From the NCBI RefSeq assembly GCF_058153355.1, contig NZ_CM177019.1: DNA of 64,000 nucleotides; one strand, written 5' to 3'. Below are positions 85 to 55,772 of this stretch, piece by piece; the stretch's first letter is position 1, and every line of letters begins with the position of its first letter. A model generated the notes under the pieces. The model had not been told where the DNA came from. It was given only the letters and a program-made list of their open reading frames with translations, and did no database searches. The position numbers and the translations under genes were made by a program.

Positions 85-1041
85 TTAAACCACCCGATCC
101 AGCCCCAACATGCCGCGAGCCTGAATGAAACAGAGCAGCAACGTTCCCCATAAGGCCATCGTCAGGTAGGGGCTTATCCCGAGAATATTGAAGCCGCTTT
201 CAATAATTTGCAGAAGAAACAGCGCCAGCACCATACCAATTATCCGCCCGCTGCCGCCGTCCGGATTAACCCCGCCAAGTACTGCCGCGAGGATTGACAC
301 CAGCAAGTACGATTCGCCATAAGAGGCCTTAGCCGAGTTGAGTTTCGACATCATCAAAAATGCCGCTACCGCACAAAGCAAGGCGGAAATGACATAAACC
401 CAAATCAGCACCCGACGAGTGTTAATGCCGGAGTAAAGTGTTGCTCGTTCGTTAGAACCAATCAGATAAATGGCTTTACCGAGCGGCGTTTTCTCCAGCA
501 ATACCCACAGTCCCAGTGCCACTGCGGCAAACAACCACATCGGTAGCGGAATACCGAACCATTGCGCATGATTCAACCACAGCACCCATGAGGGATAATT
601 GGCAATGGCGCTACCGCCTGTCACCAGAATATTTACCCCCTTGAGCAACGTCATCATCCCAAGCGTTGCAAGAATTGGCGACACTCGAATACCAGCAATC
701 AATACGCCGTTACATAAACCGATTATCACCGCCGCGCCAGCGCCCGCCAGCAGCGTAGCGACAACCGTAGCAATACCCGGTGGATACTGAGTCGCCACCC
801 ACGCCATCACCAGTGAACAGGCGTTAGCAGTGGCAATAATTGACAAGTTAATGCCACCGCAAAGCATGGTCACCGCCATAGCCAACGCCAGAATGCCCAG
901 CACGGGCATTTGCGAAGCGACGGACTGGAAATTACTTATCGACCAGAAAATCTCCGGCATAGTAATGCTGAAGGCGGCAACAGTTAGCACCAGCAGGCCG
1001 ATCAAGTAAAACTCAACGTTATTACGCCACGATTTTTTCAT
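85..1041 (-). CDS. Sugar ABC transporter permease (CUT2 ribose/AI-2 type, LsrD/YjfF-like)
   Basis: ORF 85..1071 is hydrophobic and multi-spanning. Likely start is the ATG at 1039-1041 (MKKSWRNN...), overlapping the upstream gene's TGA as ATGA (translational coupling). Fourth gene of a binding-protein/ATPase/permease/permease operon. Confidence 0.8.
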   Translation of the reverse strand: MKKSWRNNVEFYLIGLLVLTVAAFSITMPEIFWSISNFQSVASQMPVLGILALAMAVTMLCGGINLSIIATANACSLVMAWVATQYPPGIATVVATLLAGAGAAVIIGLCNGVLIAGIRVSPILATLGMMTLLKGVNILVTGGSAIANYPSWVLWLNHAQWFGIPLPMWLFAAVALGLWVLLEKTPLGKAIYLIGSNERATLYSGINTRRVLIWVYVISALLCAVAAFLMMSKLNSAKASYGESYLLVSILAAVLGGVNPDGGSGRIIGMVLALFLLQIIESGFNILGISPYLTMALWGTLLLCFIQARGMLGLDRVV

Positions 1042-2009
1042 AGCAGACTCCGGTTCTGATGCTGACTCCACGCCGTGGCGCTAATGCTGGCAACGATGAT
1101 GATGCCTGTGATCAATGTTTGCCAGTAAGACGAGACTCCCAATAAATTTAGCCCGTTTTGCATCACAGCCAACAACACCACGCCGAGCAAAGTACCGGTT
1201 AACGTGCCGCGCCCGCCGAGCAAACTAGTGCCGCCAAGCACCACCGCAGCCAGTACTGTCAGCTCATAACCCAGAAGAGAATCGGGGGCGACAGTCATCA
1301 CCGTCCACGACTGCACTACCCCCGCAGCACCAGACATCAATCCCATATAGCCGTAAACGAAAAGTTGCAGTTTCAGCACGCTAAAGCCGATGCGACTGGC
1401 TGATTCACGGTTCCCGCCAAGGGCATAAATTTTGCGCCCTACACTGGTGAAATTCATGATAAACGCTGTCAGCAGCACCACCGTAATCATGGCGATCAGC
1501 GGCAGACCAAGGCCATAGTCATAGCCGTCAACATCGGTGTACTTGAACAACATTACCCCCTGCTCAAACCACGGCGGAAAGTCGTACAGCCACACACCTT
1601 TACTCAACCATAACAGCAGGCCATAGAAAATATTCAGCGTCGAAATGGTGATGATGATAGAAGGCACCCGTAGGCGATTAACCAGTAAGGCGTTTATTAA
1701 GCCAAGTAAAATGCCGATGCCGCCCGCCAGGGCAAACGCGACAGCAAAGTTGCCACCCATTTTTTGCAGCAACAGCACCATGCCGTATTGCGCAATGATG
1801 GTCATTGCTGGAAACGAAATATCAATTCCACCGGAAATTAACACCACAAACAAACCACAGGCGAGAATAGTCAACATGGCATAGTTATTGGCGAGATCGT
1901 ACAAATTACCGAATGTCAGAAACTCGTCGCTGCGCCAGGCAAGGCCAACAAACAGCACTATAATCAGTAATGCCAGCCAGAATTCATGGCGTTTTTTCAG
2001 TTCAGCCAT
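1038..2009 (-). CDS. Sugar ABC transporter permease (CUT2 type, LsrC/RbsC-like)
   Basis: 323-aa hydrophobic ORF, 8-bp overlap with the upstream ATPase gene; typical RbsC-family composition. Confidence 0.8.
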   Translation of the reverse strand: MAELKKRHEFWLALLIIVLFVGLAWRSDEFLTFGNLYDLANNYAMLTILACGLFVVLISGGIDISFPAMTIIAQYGMVLLLQKMGGNFAVAFALAGGIGILLGLINALLVNRLRVPSIIITISTLNIFYGLLLWLSKGVWLYDFPPWFEQGVMLFKYTDVDGYDYGLGLPLIAMITVVLLTAFIMNFTSVGRKIYALGGNRESASRIGFSVLKLQLFVYGYMGLMSGAAGVVQSWTVMTVAPDSLLGYELTVLAAVVLGGTSLLGGRGTLTGTLLGVVLLAVMQNGLNLLGVSSYWQTLITGIIIVASISATAWSQHQNRSLL

Positions 2010-3501
2010 TTACCACCTCCGCAATCCTGGCCTGAGAACTGCTGTCAGGCAGGAAGCTATGGGTGATCTGACCTTTTTGCATTACCAAAATCCGGTGGCT
2101 TTGATACCACGCTTCTTCAATTTCATCGCAGATCATCAATACCGCAATGCCATGAGCCGCCAGATCGCTGATAATGCCGTATATTCCTGCTTTGTTGGCG
2201 ATATCAACACCGACAGTCGGGCTATCGAGAATCAACAGTCGTGGCCCAATCGCCAGCCATTTGGCGATCGATACTCGCTGCGCGTTACCCCCGGAAAGCG
2301 TATTCACCGGGAGATGTGGGTCAGAGACTTTGATGGTCAATGCCTTAATTAGCCTGTCCACCAGGTCACGCACTTTAGCTTCACTCAGAAAGCCGAAGCG
2401 ATCTTTTACCTTGTGAAAAACAGTGCTAATGATGTTGTCTTCAATAGATTGCGCCATCACCAAACCGCGCGACATGCGATCTTCCGAAACATAACCAATA
2501 CCGTGGCGGATGGCGTCCTGGTTACTATGCAGTGTAACCGGCTGACCGTTGATGAGGATCTCACCAGCATCCGGTCGGGTCATACCAAACAGACTCAGAC
2601 ATAATTCCGTGCGCCCCGCACCAAGCAGGCCAACAATCGACACCACTTCGCCCGCTTCCACCCGCAAGTTAATATTTTGATATTCCCCATGACGACTTAA
2701 ATTACGCACCTCCAGCACTGGGTTGCTGGATTTTCCCTGCCACAACTCTCGCACCTGATATTCAAACTCCTGGCCGGTCATCAGGAAACCGAGTTGTTTT
2801 GTGGTCATCTCTGCAGCCGGAAAGGTCCCGACCAGCTCACCATCTTTCAACACTGAAATACGGTCGGAAACTTCCATCACCTCTTCCAGACGATGACTGA
2901 CGAAGACCACGCAGATCCCGCGTTCCCGCAATTGATGCACCACCTGTAATAACCCTTGCACTTCCTGATGGGTCAGCGAAGCGGTTGGTTCATCCATCAC
3001 GATCAACCGTGCGTCCTGCGCCAGTGCACGGCAAATTGCCACCAGCTGACAGCGGGCAATTGAAAGCTCAGAAACGAGCGTATCCAGTGGCAATGTGACG
3101 TTAATACTGGTCATTGCCGCCTGCGCCACCTCACGCAGACGACGTCGGTTAACAAACAGACCGTGGTGATAGTGATTCACGGCGATATTCTCCCAGACAC
3201 TCAGGTTAGGAAATAAAGAGAGGTCCTGATAAATCACCTGAATCCCCTGCGCCACCGAAGCGGCGGGTGTCAGCTTTGACCAGTTTTTCCCACCAAGCGT
3301 AATTTCCGCCCCCTCATCCGGGCGATAAACACCGGACATAATTTTAATCAACGTCGATTTACCACAGCCGTTTTGCCCGGCAAGGCAGTGCACCTCACCC
3401 GACATAAAGTCGAGAGAAACATCGCGCAGCGCTCGCGTGGCATGAAACGTTTTGTTGATATGACGAAGGGAAAGGAAGGTTTCCATAGCATCCCCTGGCA
3501 A
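2002..3501 (-). CDS. Sugar ABC transporter ATP-binding protein with two nucleotide-binding domains (RbsA/LsrA-like)
   Basis: 499 aa with two Walker A motifs (GQNGCGKST and GLLGAGRTE) and LSGG signature. An alternative start at METFLSL (3486) is possible. Confidence 0.85.
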   Translation of the reverse strand: MPGDAMETFLSLRHINKTFHATRALRDVSLDFMSGEVHCLAGQNGCGKSTLIKIMSGVYRPDEGAEITLGGKNWSKLTPAASVAQGIQVIYQDLSLFPNLSVWENIAVNHYHHGLFVNRRRLREVAQAAMTSINVTLPLDTLVSELSIARCQLVAICRALAQDARLIVMDEPTASLTHQEVQGLLQVVHQLRERGICVVFVSHRLEEVMEVSDRISVLKDGELVGTFPAAEMTTKQLGFLMTGQEFEYQVRELWQGKSSNPVLEVRNLSRHGEYQNINLRVEAGEVVSIVGLLGAGRTELCLSLFGMTRPDAGEILINGQPVTLHSNQDAIRHGIGYVSEDRMSRGLVMAQSIEDNIISTVFHKVKDRFGFLSEAKVRDLVDRLIKALTIKVSDPHLPVNTLSGGNAQRVSIAKWLAIGPRLLILDSPTVGVDIANKAGIYGIISDLAAHGIAVLMICDEIEEAWYQSHRILVMQKGQITHSFLPDSSSQARIAEVVNG

Positions 3502-3534
3502 TAAGAATCGGGGCTTTCGCCCCGAAGAAATGGA

Positions 3535-4521
3535 TTAATAAAGTGAGTCAATATTGTCTTTGTTGACCAGTAATACCTTATGGAAACGGATAATTCGCTT
3601 ATCCATATCTACGTCGGCCTTACCGAGATTCTCCATTTCTAATCCAGGTTTGATCTCTTCACCCTTCAGCAACGTGCTGGCGACGGCCGCGAGTGCGTAA
3701 CCTGCAGAGGCCGGATCGTAAGTAATCCCTTCGGTGATATCACCACTTTTAATCAGTGATGCCGCCTGTGAAGGGATCATCATGCCATAGACTGCGACTT
3801 TATTTTTCGCCCGTTTCTCTTTCACCGCACGTCCCGCGCCAATCGGACCGTTTGAACCAAAGGAGACAACCGCTTTCAAGTCAGGATAGGTTTTCATCAG
3901 GTCCAGTGTGGTACGACGTGAGTCATCCACACTCTCGGCAACCGGCATGCGGCGGGTAACTTCATGCATATCCGGGTAATGCTCTTTCTGGTATTTCACC
4001 AGCAAGTCAGCCCATAAGTTATGCTGCGGCACGGTCAAACTACCCACGTAAATCACATAGCCGCCCTTGCCACCCATGCGTTTCGCCATATGTTCAACAT
4101 ATTCAGCGGCAAATTTTTCGTTATCAATGATTTCGATATCCCAGTTAGCACTTGGCTGACCGGGGGATTCGTTGGTCAGAACCACAATTCCGGCATCTCG
4201 CGCTTTTTTGAATACCGGTTCCAGCACGTTGGCATCGTTTGGTACAATTGTAATTGCATTAACCTTACGGGCGATTAAATCCTCAATGATTTTAACCTGT
4301 TGCGGAGCATCAGTACTTGAAGGCCCCACCGGTGACGCATTAACACCAAAGGCTTTACCCGCCTCGACCACACCTTCGCCCATGCGATTAAACCACGGCA
4401 TACCATCGACTTTCGAGATATTCACCACGACTTTTTCCGCTGCCTGGAGCGGCGCAGAAATTAGCGCAGCGCCTAATAACAGCGAAGACACCATATTGAT
4501 AACAAAACGTTTATTCATCAT
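3535..4521 (-). CDS. Periplasmic sugar-binding protein (LsrB/RbsB-like, PBP type I)
   Basis: 328 aa with N-terminal signal peptide (LLLGAALISAPLQAAEK). Resembles LsrB in my recollection, including the C-terminal NKDNID motif. First gene of the operon on the minus strand. Confidence 0.85.
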   Translation of the reverse strand: MMNKRFVINMVSSLLLGAALISAPLQAAEKVVVNISKVDGMPWFNRMGEGVVEAGKAFGVNASPVGPSSTDAPQQVKIIEDLIARKVNAITIVPNDANVLEPVFKKARDAGIVVLTNESPGQPSANWDIEIIDNEKFAAEYVEHMAKRMGGKGGYVIYVGSLTVPQHNLWADLLVKYQKEHYPDMHEVTRRMPVAESVDDSRRTTLDLMKTYPDLKAVVSFGSNGPIGAGRAVKEKRAKNKVAVYGMMIPSQAASLIKSGDITEGITYDPASAGYALAAVASTLLKGEEIKPGLEMENLGKADVDMDKRIIRFHKVLLVNKDNIDSLY

Positions 4522-4772
4522 TTCAGCCTCATTGCAGGGTAGTCAGGAAGTGTTCGCCCAAATTAGCGCGCTGGAGAGAATAAGAATTTTTGAATATTTT
4601 TATGCAGAATAAACAGCCCTATTTCAGGCAGCTATTAAAAATTTGGTTATAAATATGGACAAAACGGGCAGTAACAATAAGTGATGACAATCATCACGTA
4701 AAAAATAGCAAAATAAACAAAATTAGCGATACTTTATGTTTGTGAGCTTATTTCGCGTAGAAAAATAGTTAT

Positions 4773-4898
4773 CTACACAATGTCAATAAGGGCATATTCT
4801 TCAAAGATAACGTCCATTTCGGGTGAATAGCATCCTTCTGCCTGGAAAAAACGACGGTGTTCATTGCGCCAATATTCAAGACTGAGGTCACCTTCACC
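4773..4898 (-). pseudogene. 3' remnant of an ASCH-like small gene split by the IS66-family insertion
   Basis: Removing the IS and one copy of the 8-bp duplication joins 7368..7660 in frame to this segment (..KEGEG-DLSLEYWRNEHRRFFQAEGCYSPEMDVIFEEYALIDIV, stop at 4773-4775), giving about 130 aa. The ASCH assignment itself is tentative. Confidence 0.6.
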
Positions 4899-4973
4899 GT
4901 AAGCGTCTTATCAGGACCGTCTGGCAAATTCCCGATGCTTTGGACAAAGTATCCACCACTAAATTAATAGTGG

Positions 4974-5402
4974 GTGATAAAAATGTCAGATATACAAAAA
5001 AATGCCTCTCCGGGAAGGCCTAAAGGGTGCCTGAATTATCCTCCTGAATTCAAACAACGACTCATAGAAGCATCATTCCAGCCAGGTGTTTCAATTTCCA
5101 GACTGGCCCTGGACAATGGTATTAATGCCAATCTGTTGTTCAAATGGCGTCAGAAATGGCGGCAGGGGAAGATAAAATTGCCATCATCAGAATCAGGCAG
5201 AGAATCTCAGTTAATTCCTGTCACTATTGATGCCCAACTCCCAACTGCTCCGGCTAATGAGCCACTGACCGCAAGACCGTCAGTAACACCGGAAATACAC
5301 AGCATCTCCTGTGAGATTACGTTCAGAAACGGCACCCTTCGGTTGAACGGGGCAGTGAATGAAAATCTGCTGTCCTTGCTTATACAGGAGCTGAGACGGT
5401 GA
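4974..5402 (+). CDS. IS66-family accessory protein TnpA (orf1)
   Basis: 142 aa, helix-turn-helix-like N-terminus; first ORF of the IS66 triad, 4-bp overlap with orf2. Confidence 0.85.
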   Translation: MIKMSDIQKNASPGRPKGCLNYPPEFKQRLIEASFQPGVSISRLALDNGINANLLFKWRQKWRQGKIKLPSSESGRESQLIPVTIDAQLPTAPANEPLTARPSVTPEIHSISCEITFRNGTLRLNGAVNENLLSLLIQELRR

Positions 5403-5746
5403 TATCTCTCCCTGCAGGTTCGCGTATCTGGCTGGTTGCAGGTATCACCGATATGCGAAATGGCTTTAACGGCCTGGCCTCAAAAGTTCAGAACGTCCTG
5501 AAGGATGACCCGTTCTCCGGGCATCTGTTCATCTTCCGCGGACGCCGGGGTGACCAGATAAAAGTGTTGTGGGCTGACAGTGACGGACTGTGCCTCTTCA
5601 CCAGACGCCTGGAGCGGGGCCGCTTCGTCTGGCCGGTCACCCGTGACGGCAAGGTGCACCTTACTCCGGCCCAGTTATCCATGCTTCTTGAGGGCATCGA
5701 CTGGAAACACCCGAAACGAACGGAACGCGCTGGCATCCGCATATAA
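5399..5746 (+). CDS. IS66-family accessory protein TnpB (orf2)
   Basis: 115 aa, conserved IS66 Orf2 sequence (..LFIFRGRRGDQIKVLWADSDGLCLFTRRLERGRF..). Confidence 0.85.
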   Translation: MISLPAGSRIWLVAGITDMRNGFNGLASKVQNVLKDDPFSGHLFIFRGRRGDQIKVLWADSDGLCLFTRRLERGRFVWPVTRDGKVHLTPAQLSMLLEGIDWKHPKRTERAGIRI

Positions 5747-5765
5747 CCCGTTGTAAAGTGAGGAT

Positions 5766-7337
5766 ATGGACACCTCACTTGCTCATGAGAATGCCCGCCT
5801 GCGGGCACTGTTGCAGACGCAACAGGACACCATCCGCCAGATGGCGAAATACAACCGCCTGCTCTCACAGCGGGTGGCGGCTTATGCTTCCGAAATCAAC
5901 CGGCTGAAGGCGCTGGTTGCAAAACTGCAGCGCATGCAGTTCGGTAAAAGCTCAGAAAAACTTCGTGCAAAAACCGAACGGCAGATACAGGAAGCACAGG
6001 AGCGAATCAGCGCTCTTCAGGAAGAAATGGCGGAAACGCTGGGTGAGCAATATGACCCGGTACTGCCATCTCCCCTGCGCCAGTCTTCAGCCCGTAAACC
6101 GTTACCTGCCTCACTTCCCCGTGAAACCCGGGTCATCCGTCCGGAAGAGGAATGCTGCCCGGCCTGTGGTGGCGAACTCAGTTCTCTGGGATGTGATGTG
6201 TCAGAGCAACTGGAGCTTATCAGCAGCGCCTTTAAGGTTATCGAAACACAACGTCCGAAACTGGCCTGTTGCCGGTGCGACCATATCGTGCAGGCTCCGG
6301 TGCCTTCAAAACCCATTGCACGCAGTTATGCCGGAGCGGGGCTTCTGGCCCATGTTGTCGCTGGAAAATATGCAGACCATCTGCCGTTATACCGCCAGTC
6401 AGAAATATACCGTCGTCAGGGCGTGGAGCTGAGCCGTGCCACACTGGGGCGCTGGACAGGTGCTGTTGCTGAACTGCTGGAACCGCTGTATGACATCCTG
6501 CGCCAGTATGTGCTGATGCCCGGTAAAGTCCATGCCGATGATATCCCCGTTCCGGTCCAGGAGCCGGGCAGCGGTAAAACAAGGACTGCCCGGCTGTGGG
6601 TCTACGTTCGTGATGACCGTAACGCCGGTTCGGAAATGCCTCCGGCGGTCTGGTTCGCGTACAGCCCGGACCGGAAAGGTATCCATCCACAGAATCATCT
6701 GGCCGGTTACAGCGGAGTGCTTCAGGCCGATGCTTACGGTGGTTACCGGGCGTTGTACGAATCCGGCAGAATAACGGAAGCCGCATGTATGGCTCATGCC
6801 CGGAGAAAAATCCACGATGTGCATGCAAGAGTGCCCACCGACATCACCACGGAAGCCCTGCAGCGTATCGGTGAACTGTATGCCATCGAGGCAGAGGTCC
6901 GGGGCTGTTCAGCAGAACAGCGTCTGGCGGCAAGAAAAGCCAGAGCCGCGCCACTGATGCAGTCACTGTATGACTGGATACAGCAACAGATGAAAACACT
7001 GTCGCGTCACTCGGACACGGCAAAAGCGTTCGCATACCTGCTGAAACAGTGGGATGCACTGAACGTGTACTGCAGTAATGGCTGGGTGGAAATCGACAAC
7101 AACATCGCAGAGAACGCCTTACGGGGAGTGGCCGTAGGCCGGAAAAACTGGCTCTTCGCGGGTTCTGACAGCGGTGGTGAACATGCTGCGGTGTTGTACT
7201 CGCTGATCGGCACATGCCGTCTGAACAATGTGGAGCCAGAAAAGTGGCTGCGTTACGTCATTGAACATATCCAGGACTGGCCGGCAAACCGGGTACGCGA
7301 TCTGTTGCCCTGGAAAGTTGATCTGAGCTCTCAGTAA
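5766..7337 (+). CDS. IS66-family transposase TnpC (orf3)
   Basis: 523 aa with N-terminal coiled-coil, CxxC...CxxC zinc-finger-like segment and DDE-type core; ends 30 bp before the right IR. Confidence 0.9.
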
Positions 7338-7367
7338 ATATCAATACGGTTCTGGCGAGCCGCTTAC

Positions 7368-7660
7368 CCTTCACCTTCCTTACGGGCAATCTCTTCGGTG
7401 ACATCAGAAAAGCGCAGTAAATGCAGGCCAATAACTCTGATAACACACACAGGCTCACCACGGCTATTTTCTACAATCTTATACTCACCAATCATCGGAA
7501 ATGCTTTGTCTTCAATACATCCTGCCAGCGAACCACAGGAAGCAGTTTTAACACCAGTTGCAATCAACGTTGCGAGGTAATCGGCCAACGCTGCTGAATC
7601 GCCAAAACTACAAAAGGAAGCATGGGGATATTTTTGTGAGATTTTTTCTTTTATGGTCAT
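7368..7660 (-). pseudogene. 5' portion of the IS66-disrupted ASCH-like gene
   Basis: 98-aa ORF whose stop codon (7364-7366) is supplied by the IS terminal repeat; the reading frame continues into 4773..4898 once the IS is removed. Confidence 0.6.
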
Positions 7661-10301: not shown

Positions 10302-10351
10302 GTTGTTATGTCCGCTACAGAGGGTGATGGGGTTATGACCAACGCCAAATT

Positions 10352-11600
<1,249 letters not shown>

Positions 11601-11630
11601 CATGCCTGCAATCTGGGAAACCGGGGTAGA

Positions 11631-11900
<270 letters not shown>

Positions 11901-11920
11901 GACAACGCGCACTTTGCAGG

Positions 11921-13339: not shown

Positions 13340-14886
13340 CAGGCTTCCTCCCCTTTGCAAATAAATTCACGCGCCAGCAATCCGGTATTGGTGCTGCTGC
13401 TGGCCAGAATCACCCCGGCATCAAGCAGCATCTGGCTTTGTTGTGCTAACGATGACGTATCGAGATCGGTACCCAGCACATAGGCGAGAATGATCAACTC
13501 GCGGCCTTCGGCGGCAGCGATCGCTTTCGCTTCTTTGATCGCCTCGATGGTGGAACCGACCGGATCTTCATGCGATCCAAATCCGAGCACAAAATCCATC
13601 ACGATCACCGCCACTTCTGGATCGCGCGCCTCTTCGATCAAGCGACTGATGCGGTTGGTGGGGTCAATCATTGGATGCGGCTTGCCGTTGGTGAAGTCGT
13701 CATCACCAAAGTCGAGGAAGGTATGTTTGATGCTGCGGTTGATATCTTGCAGGCGGAATTCAGGATCGGGCTGAATGTTGCTGTAGACATCGCCGTGTTT
13801 TTCCATCACCGCGAACATGGTTTCGTCGCACAGTGTGCCGCCGCAGAACAGGCCACGAATGTATTTCTGCCGCGGTTGCAGACGCGCCCGCACATCCGCA
13901 ATCAACGGCTGGTTCAGGATATGCAGGTCGAGATGTTCTTGTTTCACGCCGGAGAGCATCACCGCTTTCAATGCCGCCTCTTTACTGCCGCGGGCAAACT
14001 GTAGCCCCTGCTCATCCACTGGCGTTTCGCCACGACCGAGGAAGCAGACTACCACCGGCTTGCGGCAGGCACGTGCGCGTTCCAGCACTTTGCGGGCCAC
14101 CGCAGGCGCAGGCGGTTTGGAGATAAGCACAATGATTTCAGTTTGCGGATCGTTTTCCAGCATCCCGATGGCGTCGAGCATCATCAGGCCGCCGATTTTC
14201 TCGCTCAGGTCGCGCCCGCCGGTACCAATCAGTTGCGAAACGCCGCCGCCAAATTCATGAATACGGACGCTCAGTTCCTGGCTACCGGTGCCGGATGCGC
14301 CAACAATACCGATGTTGCCGCGACGCACAGCGTTACCAAAGCAGAGCGCCGCGCCGTTGATAATCGCCGTGCCGCAGTCTGGCCCCATCATCAGCAGCCC
14401 TTTTTCGTGGGCCAGTTGCTTGAGCGCCAGTTCATCTTCAACCGAGACGTTATCGGAAAACAGCATCACGTTAAGATCGTTTTGCAGCGCCTGACGCGCT
14501 TCGCGAGCGGCAAACAGACCGTTGACCGAAATCACTGCCAGGTTACTTTCCGGGATATGCTTTTTGGCGCTGGCAATAGTGGCATAACGCGCCTCGTGCG
14601 AGCCGCTTTGCGCTTTGCTGTTGAACAGTTCTTCAATCTCCACCAGCAACTGCTCGTTGTCTGCGCCCGCTTTGCCGTTGATGACAATCATCAGGTCGCC
14701 GTTTTTCGCCTGCTCCAGCTCCGGCGTCAGCAGCCCTAAATTCTTCAGCACGCCTTTGTTCATTTCGGTCGCCATCGCCACAAATGCCTGCTCGACGCCG
14801 TCGAGTTTATTTGCACGCGTGGAGATAGACATCAGCGAGACAGAATCAAAATAGGTATTCGGTTTAATGACTATTTTAACTGACAT
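13339..14886 (-). CDS. yahF: FdrA-like protein YahF (CoA-binding / succinyl-CoA synthetase-like fold)
   Basis: 515 aa with glycine-rich nucleotide/CoA-binding-like segments (GIVGASGTG, GGVSQLIGTGG); matches K-12 YahF length and position. Confidence 0.8.
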   Translation of the reverse strand: MSVKIVIKPNTYFDSVSLMSISTRANKLDGVEQAFVAMATEMNKGVLKNLGLLTPELEQAKNGDLMIVINGKAGADNEQLLVEIEELFNSKAQSGSHEARYATIASAKKHIPESNLAVISVNGLFAAREARQALQNDLNVMLFSDNVSVEDELALKQLAHEKGLLMMGPDCGTAIINGAALCFGNAVRRGNIGIVGASGTGSQELSVRIHEFGGGVSQLIGTGGRDLSEKIGGLMMLDAIGMLENDPQTEIIVLISKPPAPAVARKVLERARACRKPVVVCFLGRGETPVDEQGLQFARGSKEAALKAVMLSGVKQEHLDLHILNQPLIADVRARLQPRQKYIRGLFCGGTLCDETMFAVMEKHGDVYSNIQPDPEFRLQDINRSIKHTFLDFGDDDFTNGKPHPMIDPTNRISRLIEEARDPEVAVIVMDFVLGFGSHEDPVGSTIEAIKEAKAIAAAEGRELIILAYVLGTDLDTSSLAQQSQMLLDAGVILASSSTNTGLLAREFICKGEEA

Positions 14887-36672: not shown

Positions 36673-37527
36673 TCAGGGTGCAAGCTGTCTCACCCTTTCC
36701 CGATATTCTCCCGGAGTACAACCAAACTCGCGGACAAACGCCTTGTGAAAAGATGATTCGCTGGCATAGCCTACTGACTCAGCGATCACCACAACAGGGA
36801 GCATTTCCCGGGAAAACATCTGGGCCGCTATTTGTAGACGCAACTTTGTTAATACAGCCAGCGGCGTGGTTCCGGAAACATCACGGAAAAGCTGGGCAAA
36901 ACTTGCCCGGGACATATGGGCGATGCTGGCCAGCGATTCGACGGTCCAGGCGTGTCCTGGCATTTCCAGCATTTGCTGTATTACCGCACCAAGACGTGGA
37001 TGCAGAAGCAAACTGAGAATGTTTTTCTCAGTATTAACCTGTGCAATCCACTCACGCACCGCGAGGGTAAAGAATGTAGCGCAGATCTGGCTACACAGTG
37101 CATCCACTCCCGGCATTGCCGATTTGGACTCCTGTTGTAAAAACGGGATCGCCTCCCTCAGCCAGTTATATTCCACGCTGTGGTTAACCGGTGCTAAAAA
37201 CAGCGTTTCCGGCAAAGACGTTAAAAAATAACGCGCCGAATGTTGCAGTCGAAGAGTGCCACAGACAATACAGGTCGATTCATTATCGACATGACTCAGG
37301 CGATGAGCTGAATTTTGTGGTAGCAGGACCACATTTCCCGGGCGTAATGTAAAAATCTCCCCCGTCGGCATTTCCAGCTTCGCCGCTCCTTGCGTTAACG
37401 CATGCCAACGAATAACCGATAATTCCCCGGCACCATGTGGAAGCTGCCAGTCACTTCCTAACACGCAATTCTTATCGATCGTTCCTTGTGGAGCGTTAAG
37501 CATCAACAAACGGCTAAGGGCATCCAT
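36673..37527 (-). CDS. rclR: AraC-family regulator RclR (YkgD)
   Basis: 284 aa, C-terminal AraC HTH; divergent from rclA. Confidence 0.8.
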   Translation of the reverse strand: MDALSRLLMLNAPQGTIDKNCVLGSDWQLPHGAGELSVIRWHALTQGAAKLEMPTGEIFTLRPGNVVLLPQNSAHRLSHVDNESTCIVCGTLRLQHSARYFLTSLPETLFLAPVNHSVEYNWLREAIPFLQQESKSAMPGVDALCSQICATFFTLAVREWIAQVNTEKNILSLLLHPRLGAVIQQMLEMPGHAWTVESLASIAHMSRASFAQLFRDVSGTTPLAVLTKLRLQIAAQMFSREMLPVVVIAESVGYASESSFHKAFVREFGCTPGEYRERVRQLAP

Positions 37528-41277: not shown

Positions 41278-42168
41278 GTGCGATATGACAAAGAATTAAC
41301 GGAGAATGTGATGATCAGGCAGAAGATTCTACAGCAGCTCCTGGAGTGGATTGAGTGCAATCTTGAGCACCCTATTTCAATCGAAGATATCGCACAGAAA
41401 TCTGGCTACAGCAGACGCAACATCCAGCTTCTGTTCCGAAATTTCATGCATGTACCTTTGGGAGAATACATTCGCAAACGAAGGCTTTGTCGCGCCGCCA
41501 TTCTTGTCCGGCTCACCGCGAAATCTATGCTTGATATTGCACTCTCTTTGCATTTTGATTCACAGCAGTCATTCAGCCGCGAATTTAAAAAGTTATTCGG
41601 CTGCTCTCCCCGTGAATACCGCCACCGTGATTATTGGGATCTCGCAAATATCTTCCCTTCTTTTTTAATACGTCAACAGCAAAAGACGGAGTGTAGATTA
41701 GTCAACTTTCCTGAGACGCCTATTTTTGGCAATTCATTTAAATATGATATTGAAGTGTCGAATAAATCACCGGATGAAGAAGTCAAACTGCGACGTCATC
41801 ATTTAGCCAGATGTATGAAGAATTTTAAGACGGATATCTATTTCGTCTCCACGTTCGAACCGTCAACAAAATCGGTCGATTTGCTCACAGTTGAAACTTT
41901 TGCCGGTACGGTATGCAAACAAACCGATTCAGAGATGTCGAAAGAGTGGACAATTAACCGAGGACTGTATGCCTCTTTCCGCTATGAAGGTGAGTGGGAG
42001 CACTACCCTGAATGGGCGCGAAACCTCTATCTGATGGAATTACCTGCCAGGGGGTTAGCCAGAGTGAACGGCAGTGATATTGAGCGATTTTATTACAATG
42101 AAGATTTCGTAGAAAAGGATAGCAATGATGTTGTTTGCGAAATATTTATCCCTGTTCGTCCGGTTTAG
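41278..42168 (+). CDS. ykgA: AraC-family regulator with GyrI-like effector domain (YkgA-like)
   Basis: AraC-type HTH in the N-terminal half (ISIEDIAQKSGYSRRNIQLLFRNF, FKKLFGCSPREYRH) plus C-terminal domain; start may be the internal MIRQKIL. Confidence 0.7.
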   Translation: MRYDKELTENVMIRQKILQQLLEWIECNLEHPISIEDIAQKSGYSRRNIQLLFRNFMHVPLGEYIRKRRLCRAAILVRLTAKSMLDIALSLHFDSQQSFSREFKKLFGCSPREYRHRDYWDLANIFPSFLIRQQQKTECRLVNFPETPIFGNSFKYDIEVSNKSPDEEVKLRRHHLARCMKNFKTDIYFVSTFEPSTKSVDLLTVETFAGTVCKQTDSEMSKEWTINRGLYASFRYEGEWEHYPEWARNLYLMELPARGLARVNGSDIERFYYNEDFVEKDSNDVVCEIFIPVRPV

Positions 42169-55017: not shown

Positions 55018-55772
55018 TTACACTCAAACTGTTAAGATGATAAATGTGGTAAATCTGTTGGTACTAACATAAAAACGTTTACGCCACAGGAACAGCCTGA
55101 TCCACCGGTAACCCCATCGCCGACGTTCGAGTGCCAGTTAGAGTAACGCGCACAGATGACTGCACGCAGTGCCCTGTCAAAGAGGCCATCGTTCCTGTGA
55201 CAGCTGGCAGCCTTCGTTTAACTTCACTTAATTTGGCTCTTGGGGGGCTTACCGAACAGATGACGTAGTCACACCTATTCAATTTTTCACCACTTATTGG
55301 AGTAAACACCCATAACCATTTTGTGCGGCATGTTAATCCATTAAAACACCTTATTGATTGTCAAATATTCTTTAATGATGACCAACAATAGTTTTATGCT
55401 CTATTTATTATCATTAAAACTTGTTTTTTTACTAGTCGAGCACAAAACGCATTAAGACTATTCCTAACACCTCAGGGCAAAGTTCCTGGCTAATATAAAA
55501 TGCAAGTAAGAATTGAACGTTATATTGCCAATAACCTTATGAAACTGAATGTCTTTTTCTTCTTATCAAAAAAGCAATATTTTCATTTTTAGTAAATATT
55601 GACTTAACCATGGAATTCCTTTTCTGTTCACATATTGACACTCATCAGGAAAAAAACATAAATTTAAGCCCAATCGAAAATAATTAAAACTTAATCTCGT
55701 TTAACCTATATTGATATGTGCTACGTATCTTATTTACTTCCGATTTACTAACAACACTGAATGTACCTGTAA

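Follow-up and report, generated by a model that had tools for sequence, protein, structure and literature searches.

A perfect palindrome upstream of the Aau transporter operon of one Escherichia coli strain is very probably a CRP box distorted by a single inserted base

Aau, the accessory L-arabinose uptake system of EHEC, was named by Cottam et al. (Nat Commun 2024; PMC11127945), and the operon, its substrate and its dependence on AraC are already published (PMC11127945, PMC12307932). Induction by L-arabinose and an absolute requirement for AraC have been shown experimentally, by others, for the EHEC allele: a Paau reporter carrying ~300 bp of upstream DNA was induced only by L-arabinose, was silent in a ΔaraC background and was restored by araC in trans (PMC11127945). 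The binding protein AauA has a KD of ~2 µM for D-ribulose versus ~600 µM for L-arabinose, and aau expression is still AraC- and arabinose-dependent (PMC12307932, Nat Commun 2025). CRP is not mentioned, and no DNA site is mapped, in either of these Aau papers (PMC11127945 and PMC12307932). A related CUT2 transporter, the Rbl D-ribulose system of Citrobacter rodentium (ROD_24811-41), is ~60% identical to Aau and has been reported not to be under arabinose- or AraC-type regulation (PMC12307932).

For the architecture of the promoter, the closest known system is ParaBAD of K-12, which combines a CRP box with two 17-bp direct-repeat half-sites set 4 bp apart (araI1 TAGCATTTTTATCCATA, AGAT, araI2 TAGCGGATCCTACCTGA), a poor -35 and a -10 of the TAnnnT type. 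The same components are predicted upstream of the Aau operon in the 64,000-nucleotide stretch of DNA analysed here (NCBI RefSeq assembly GCF_058153355.1, contig NZ_CM177019.1; hereafter the window), with the two predicted half-sites, I1 and I2, spaced as araI1 and araI2 are. The -10 is offset from I2 by 21 nt in the Aau promoter of the window versus 20 nt (TACTGT) in ParaBAD, and the centre of the CRP box, counted alike in both, falls at about -90.5 relative to the inferred Aau start versus -91.5. The two promoters differ in the distance from the CRP box to I1 (13 nt in ParaBAD, 11 nt in Aau) and in the strength of the half-sites, with the I1 A-box and the I2 B-box both weaker in E. coli Aau; further, neither a divergent araC nor an obvious O2-type looping site was found at Aau. 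ParaBAD drives catabolic genes, whereas the Aau promoter drives a transporter on the strain-variable O-island 17. Like canonical cAMP-CRP sites (TGTGA-N6-TCACA) of activator-dependent (class III) promoters, the predicted Aau box consists of inverted pentamers around a non-conserved 6-bp spacer, whereas the allele in the window has effectively a 7-bp spacing, or else TCATC as its right half, and so departs from the standard form of a CRP site.

The window carries a four-gene CUT2 ABC operon (85-4521, minus strand) that, together with a gene for an ASCH-domain protein, makes up an E. coli island bounded by yahK and yahJ and is present in ~2,200-3,200 of 5,426 complete E. coli genomes. This is the Aau operon (Z0415-Z0419, O-island 17), with the ATPase and the two permease frames all intact. 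It shares its genomic position with the EHEC operon and is 97.6% identical to O157:H7 at the nucleotide level over aauA and the upstream spacer, and the DNA upstream corresponds to the fragment used in the Paau reporter. Unlike the EHEC locus, the window has a 1-bp insertion in the predicted CRP box and an IS66-family element in the neighbouring ASCH gene. An assignment of the operon to the Shewanella AraUVWZ type was considered and rejected, as AraUVWZ is YtfQRT-like. The annotation of O157:H7 ECP19-198 (locus L084, 1-152) makes the Aau ATPase gene a pseudogene interrupted by an internal stop, which fits the split Z0416-7 of PMC11127945; yet Aau is reported to be important for EHEC fitness in the gut. 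The genes and elements around the spacer are as follows.

85-3501, minus strand: remainder of the Aau operon, with a fused double ATPase (2002-3501) and two permeases (1038-2009 and 85-1071)
3535-4521, minus strand: aauA, periplasmic binding protein (Z0415 homologue), with the Shine-Dalgarno sequence GAGG at 4527-4530
4773-4898, minus strand: 3' remnant of an ASCH-domain gene interrupted by the IS element, its 5' part resuming at 7368
4899-7367, plus strand: IS66-family element of 2,469 bp with three ORFs and terminal repeats beginning GTAAGCG
36679-37008, minus strand, and 41320-41631, plus strand: AraC-family HTH domains, 23-30% identical to AraC over ~110 aa

The spacer upstream of aauA (4522-4772, 251 bp) is exactly the gap from the aauA ATG to the stop codon of the ASCH remnant. 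Within it, GTGATGACAATCATCAC at 4681-4697 is perfectly palindromic, its two 7-bp arms separated by 3 bp, and lies 160-176 bp upstream of the ATG of the binding-protein gene (4521, minus strand). A first-pass annotation had described a perfect 7-3-7 repeat about 160 bp upstream of this gene, in the regulatory region of the CUT2 operon; the repeat, its distance and its setting are all as described, while its coordinates, given as 4682-4698, are off by one. The exact 17-mer occurs once in the window, where its only relative with two mismatches (14678-14694) was dismissed as a second site and attributed to chance because it lies inside the fdrA coding sequence. Perfect inverted repeats as such are common, with 83 in the window (arms of at least 7 bp, spacer of 0-6 bp), and at least one arises in 17% of Markov simulations of the AT-rich spacer, run at 253 bp. 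Rfam covariance models gave no match at an E-value ≤1 between 4400 and 5000. The elements recognised or predicted in the spacer, all of the predicted ones reading with the operon, are as follows.

4681-4697, no strand: palindrome GTGATGA-CAA-TCATCAC, reading GTGATGA-TTG-TCATCAC on the minus (operon) strand
4682-4698, minus strand: predicted CRP box with the 1-bp insertion, CGTGA-TGATTG-TCA[T]CA in the window and CGTGATGATTGTCACA (9/10) in the common allele
4654-4670, minus strand: predicted AraC half-site I1, TGCCCGTTTTGTCCATA, with the B-box TCCATA and a weak A-box (TGCC)
4650-4653: gap of 4 bp between I1 and I2, TTTA
4633-4649, minus strand: predicted AraC half-site I2, TAACCAAATTTTTAATA, a direct repeat of I1
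4606-4611, minus strand: predicted -10, TATTCT, 21 nt past I2, placed by conservation

Conservation was assessed on 80 related loci from a search of one genome per species, of which ~60, with at least 64% binding-protein identity, were treated as orthologues (from Enterobacterales, Pasteurellaceae, Aeromonas and Vibrio). The 17-mer is absent from all 80 loci, the best matches having at least five mismatches. What is conserved at the position of the palindrome, in an alignment of the ~60 orthologous upstream regions, is GTGA-N6-TCnCA. A match of at least 9/10 to TGTGA-N6-TCACA was found in 35 of 60 loci, a ~50-fold excess over the 0.7 expected from shuffles, and a match of at least 8/10 in 56 of 60 (10.5 expected from shuffles). 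Information content in the 38 unique 16-mers is concentrated in columns 1-5, 12, 13, 15 and 16 (0.9-2.0 bits), with no more than 0.4 bits in the spacer columns; in the boxes of the Aau orthologues G4 and C13 never vary, while position 14 is unconstrained. The half-sites are retained across families despite flanks that cannot be aligned and spacers that have been randomised, as in E. coli KE55 (CGTGATGATTGTCACA), Klebsiella (TGTGAAAAAGCTCACG), Franconibacter (TGTGAATCCAGTCACA) and Mannheimia (TGTGATCTAGATCTCA, near-consensus as in the Pasteurellaceae). The distance from the box to the TCCATA motif downstream is likewise fixed, at 22 nt in 38 loci and 23 nt in 15 loci, the shorter distance being that of the Enterobacterales and the longer that of the Pasteurellaceae. 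On the basis of these patterns, the conserved core is predicted to be a cAMP-CRP site, through which a global regulator would activate the promoter. The same layout was not seen in the Providencia and Vibrio orthologues. In most of the Yersinia loci examined (L023-L036) the left half is CATGA rather than TGTGA (GTTGA in L024), and the right half is TCACA in all but L030.

A group of loci with 58-60% identity in the substrate-binding protein (SBP; L060-L081, from Citrobacter, Pluralibacter, Cedecea, Pantoea and Serratia) is paralogous to Aau and is probably the Rbl-type D-ribulose group. Unlike Aau, these loci have no CRP-plus-AraC layout beside the SBP gene, and in most of them the best CRP core scores only 6-7/10. 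A 9/10 CRP-like box is found much farther upstream, at ~-330 to -350, in Pantoea, Serratia and Rahnella.

The perfect symmetry of the palindrome is an accident, specific to this strain, of one inserted base in an otherwise ordinary site. The window was aligned with six other E. coli alleles (KE55, O157:H7, O103:H2, C7 and the loci L002 and L028), the alignments that place the extra base here covering five complete genomes, one draft and one contig. The extra base is A4684 on the plus strand, so placed that the operon strand reads TCA[T]CAC in the window versus TCACAC in the common allele; the window alone has TCATCAC, while four of the six others have TCACAC and L002 has TCACGC. An extra base is also seen in O103:H2 and C7 and was considered as a possible instance of the same insertion, which it is not, being a T in an upstream T-run outside the CRP box. 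Among the aligned E. coli alleles the half-sites are largely retained and the spacer is variable (TGATTG, TGAATG, TAAGAA). The insertion produces perfect 7-bp symmetry because it lengthens the natural 4-bp GTGA/TCAC symmetry, and an extension to seven pairs is possible because the spacer happens to be TGATTG. Despite its label, 'MAG: Bacteroidales bacterium', the 4.7-kb L002 contig (SFEK01000152.1) shares 99% identity with aauA and the aau promoter of E. coli; it almost certainly came from E. coli and was binned with a Bacteroidales genome in error.

A query of 70 bp with the site at its middle found no identical sequence among its 1,718 matches in 5,426 complete E. coli genomes, and all 40 of the full-length matches among 41 evenly sampled rows of the 1,718 span 69 bp. 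An assembly error is an improbable source of the insertion, since a contig of a draft genome (DAXYJU010000023.1 of GCA_043012465.1; locus L086) matches window positions 2035-4896 without a mismatch and carries the insertion as well. Among the alleles examined, the insertion is private to the strain of the window and to this identical draft assembly. The match of the draft contig ends at 4896, no more than two bases short of the IS66 junction (4898/4899). GCA_043012465.1 appears to be the same strain as the window or the same clone.

Within the right CRP half-site, the insertion replaces the near-invariant C15 and A16. The ancestral site has the exact 6-bp spacing between pentamers that the window allele lacks, and the orthologues score 8-10/10; in the window allele the right half is either displaced or broken by the inserted base, which lowers the score against TGTGA-N6-TCACA to 7/10 whichever register is used, versus 9/10 for the common allele. 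Two overlapping registers each retain one perfect half-site (and score 7/10), so that some residual binding of CRP is possible.

Downstream of the box, E. coli and at least 50 orthologous loci share a direct repeat of I1, a 4-bp gap and I2 with a periodicity of 21 bp. The consensus of the first element, tAGCatttTTaTCCATA (yAGC-N7-TCCATA), is nearly equal to araI1, and the second 17-bp element follows the pattern TAGC/TAAC-N7-TACCTA/TACATA in the orthologues, its A-box and position kept across genera. A matrix for I1, built only from 32 distinct orthologous sites outside E. coli, ranked window positions 4670-4654 at the top of ~128,000 positions on both strands (15.7 bits). Applied to the araC-araBAD region of K-12, the same matrix placed araI1 first (24.7 bits) and had araO2 and the two araO1 half-sites among its five best positions, all of which we take to be known AraC sites. 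I2 scores only 3.9 bits by the I1 matrix. Its B-box, TTAATA, is weak. The second-best match to the matrix in the window, CGGCATGTTAATCCATT at 55326-55342 (plus strand; 15.5 bits), is probably due to chance. In three of the loci, from Acerihabitans and Enterobacterales MAGs (L018, L019 and L022), a long inverted repeat (TTATCCATATA...TATATGGATAA) spans both half-sites, consisting of the I1 B-box and sequence just past I2; it is absent in E. coli.

A strict sigma-70 scan found no promoter between 4400 and 5000, as expected at an activator-dependent promoter, and the -10 was for this reason placed by conservation. A hexamer of the TAnnnT type stands at an equal offset, ~21 nt past I2, in other genera (TACTGT in Leclercia, TACAGT in Limnobaculum, TAGAGT in Yersinia and TAAGAT in the Pasteurellaceae, as well as TACTCT). 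From this placement, transcription would start near 4599 and produce a leader of ~78 nt.

In several genera the link to AraC is also physical. A gene matching the AraC equivalog NF007860 (355-426 bits, cutoff 208) adjoins the operon in Mannheimia, Limnobaculum and Providencia, and araB also adjoins it in Providencia. In the Pasteurellaceae loci L040, L047 and L051, araC precedes the Aau orthologue (~-1050 to -190 from the SBP start) and a 531-aa FGGY kinase follows it (~+4420 to +6020), an arrangement that suggests a self-contained arabinose/ribulose module with its regulator in cis. In NCBIfam this kinase comes closest to XylB and ribulokinase models but does not reach the cutoff of either. 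The comparative AraC layout is in line with the AraC dependence already published, to which it adds the likely cis-elements. The specific regulator of the promoter is AraC, which experiment has shown to be required (PMC11127945) and which is predicted to act at half-sites (4670-4633) that lie beside the palindrome and not at it.

In E. coli no regulator gene flanks the island. That no local regulator is visible, as first annotated, is correct: araC is absent from the window, which yielded just two distant homologues, both AraC-family HTH domains that presumably belong to other regulators of the AraC/XylS type in the ykg region. None needs to be local, since AraC is encoded at the distant araC locus. 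The IS66 element inserted ~200 bp upstream of the CRP box is complete, its ORFs matching HTH_Tnp_1, TnpB_IS66 and DDE_Tnp_IS66, and lies between the two copies of an 8-bp target duplication (CCTTCACC at 4891-4898 and 7368-7375). The earlier suggestions that a cognate factor was displaced by this element, or lies upstream of the ASCH-like gene, do not hold, as in KE55, a strain without the insertion, the gene beyond ASCH is yahJ. Elsewhere in the window, between the yahI and yahG homologues, an insertion of ~1.57 kb relative to KE55 (10339-11912) encodes a 326-aa IS110-family transposase (ORF 10571-11551).

Taken together, the sequence comparisons indicate that the palindrome is very probably the cAMP-CRP box of a ParaBAD-like Aau promoter, distorted in this strain by the insertion of a single base. 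The CRP box would lie ~90 bp upstream of the inferred start and be followed, 11 nt on, by the tandem AraC half-sites I1 (4670-4654) and I2 (4649-4633), of which I2 would abut a weak -35, with the -10 TATTCT then at 4611-4606. With L-arabinose present, AraC from the distant araC locus would occupy I1 and I2 and recruit RNA polymerase, and CRP would add catabolite control of Paau. The insertion, which turns TCACA into TCATCA, is predicted to weaken CRP binding and to leave the AraC sites intact. It could have done more than this: with the CRP half-site broken and the AraC sites intact, Aau, and with it D-ribulose/L-arabinose uptake, would be freed from catabolite control in this lineage, or the new palindrome might recruit another dimeric regulator, but a functional rewiring of either kind is unlikely.

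A functionless palindrome that arose by chance in an AT-rich spacer, with the GTGA/TCAC conservation reflecting shared ancestry, would be in keeping with the simulated probability of ~0.17 for at least one such repeat and with the growth of the arms from 4 bp to 7 bp through the accident of one inserted base. It is nonetheless decidedly unlikely, given half-sites kept across families whose flanks cannot be aligned and whose spacers are randomised, 35 matching loci against 0.7 in shuffles, and a fixed distance to the AraC sites. Read as a hairpin, the repeat might instead be a rho-independent terminator of the upstream ASCH gene, whose stop codon is 75 nt away, and a terminator scan does flag it on the minus strand (7 pairs, 3-nt loop, tail TTATTGTT). 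However, the stem is weak (-6.4 kcal/mol, 3 G-C pairs) and the tail interrupted, the stem of the common E. coli allele has only 5 pairs (-4.5 kcal/mol), and the spacer varies with no compensating changes; other genera are without an upstream ASCH gene, yet in them the box stays at a fixed distance from the AraC sites, and not from any stop codon upstream. A terminator is very unlikely on these grounds. A resemblance to a Fur-type or other metal-regulator box also exists, in that the centre, ATGAnAATCAT, matches 12 of 19 positions of GATAATGATAATCATTATC, which we take to be the Fur consensus. This resemblance rests on strain-specific bases and on spacer bases that vary among the E. coli alleles, it is not conserved in the orthologues, and a link to iron would not be expected for an AraC-controlled sugar transporter, making a metal-regulator box the least probable of all the readings considered.

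The reading proposed in the first-pass annotation, in which the 7-3-7 palindrome is an operator for a dedicated regulator encoded outside the window or displaced by IS66, draws on a repeat that is perfect, unique in the window and located in the promoter region of the operon, with no regulator gene adjacent. The same annotation named a lack of conservation in orthologous operons as the observation that would count against it, and the palindrome fails that comparison, being missing from the orthologous operons among the 80 related loci and from every other E. coli allele examined, with the CRP core alone conserved. Further, yahJ and not a regulator gene lies beyond ASCH in the strain free of the IS element, in other genera no regulator except AraC is found repeatedly alongside the operon, and AraC alone explains the induction seen in EHEC (PMC11127945). 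What survives of the operator-like site is its overlap with the predicted CRP element; that the 7-3-7 unit itself is the operator of a dedicated factor is highly improbable.

With the operon, its substrate and its AraC dependence already described, what is new here is a base-level map of the Aau promoter, with its inferred CRP, AraC and -10 elements, together with the strain's private CRP-box mutation; neither PMC11127945 nor PMC12307932 contains such a map. The finding carries little weight for basic biology, and it serves as a caution that a perfect palindrome seen in a single strain can be a one-base accident in an ordinary site. The map would provide a testable basis for catabolite control of an EHEC gut-colonisation factor. 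More broadly, Aau appears to be a long-standing member of the CRP/AraC regulon across the Enterobacterales and Pasteurellaceae, physically linked to araC in some genera.
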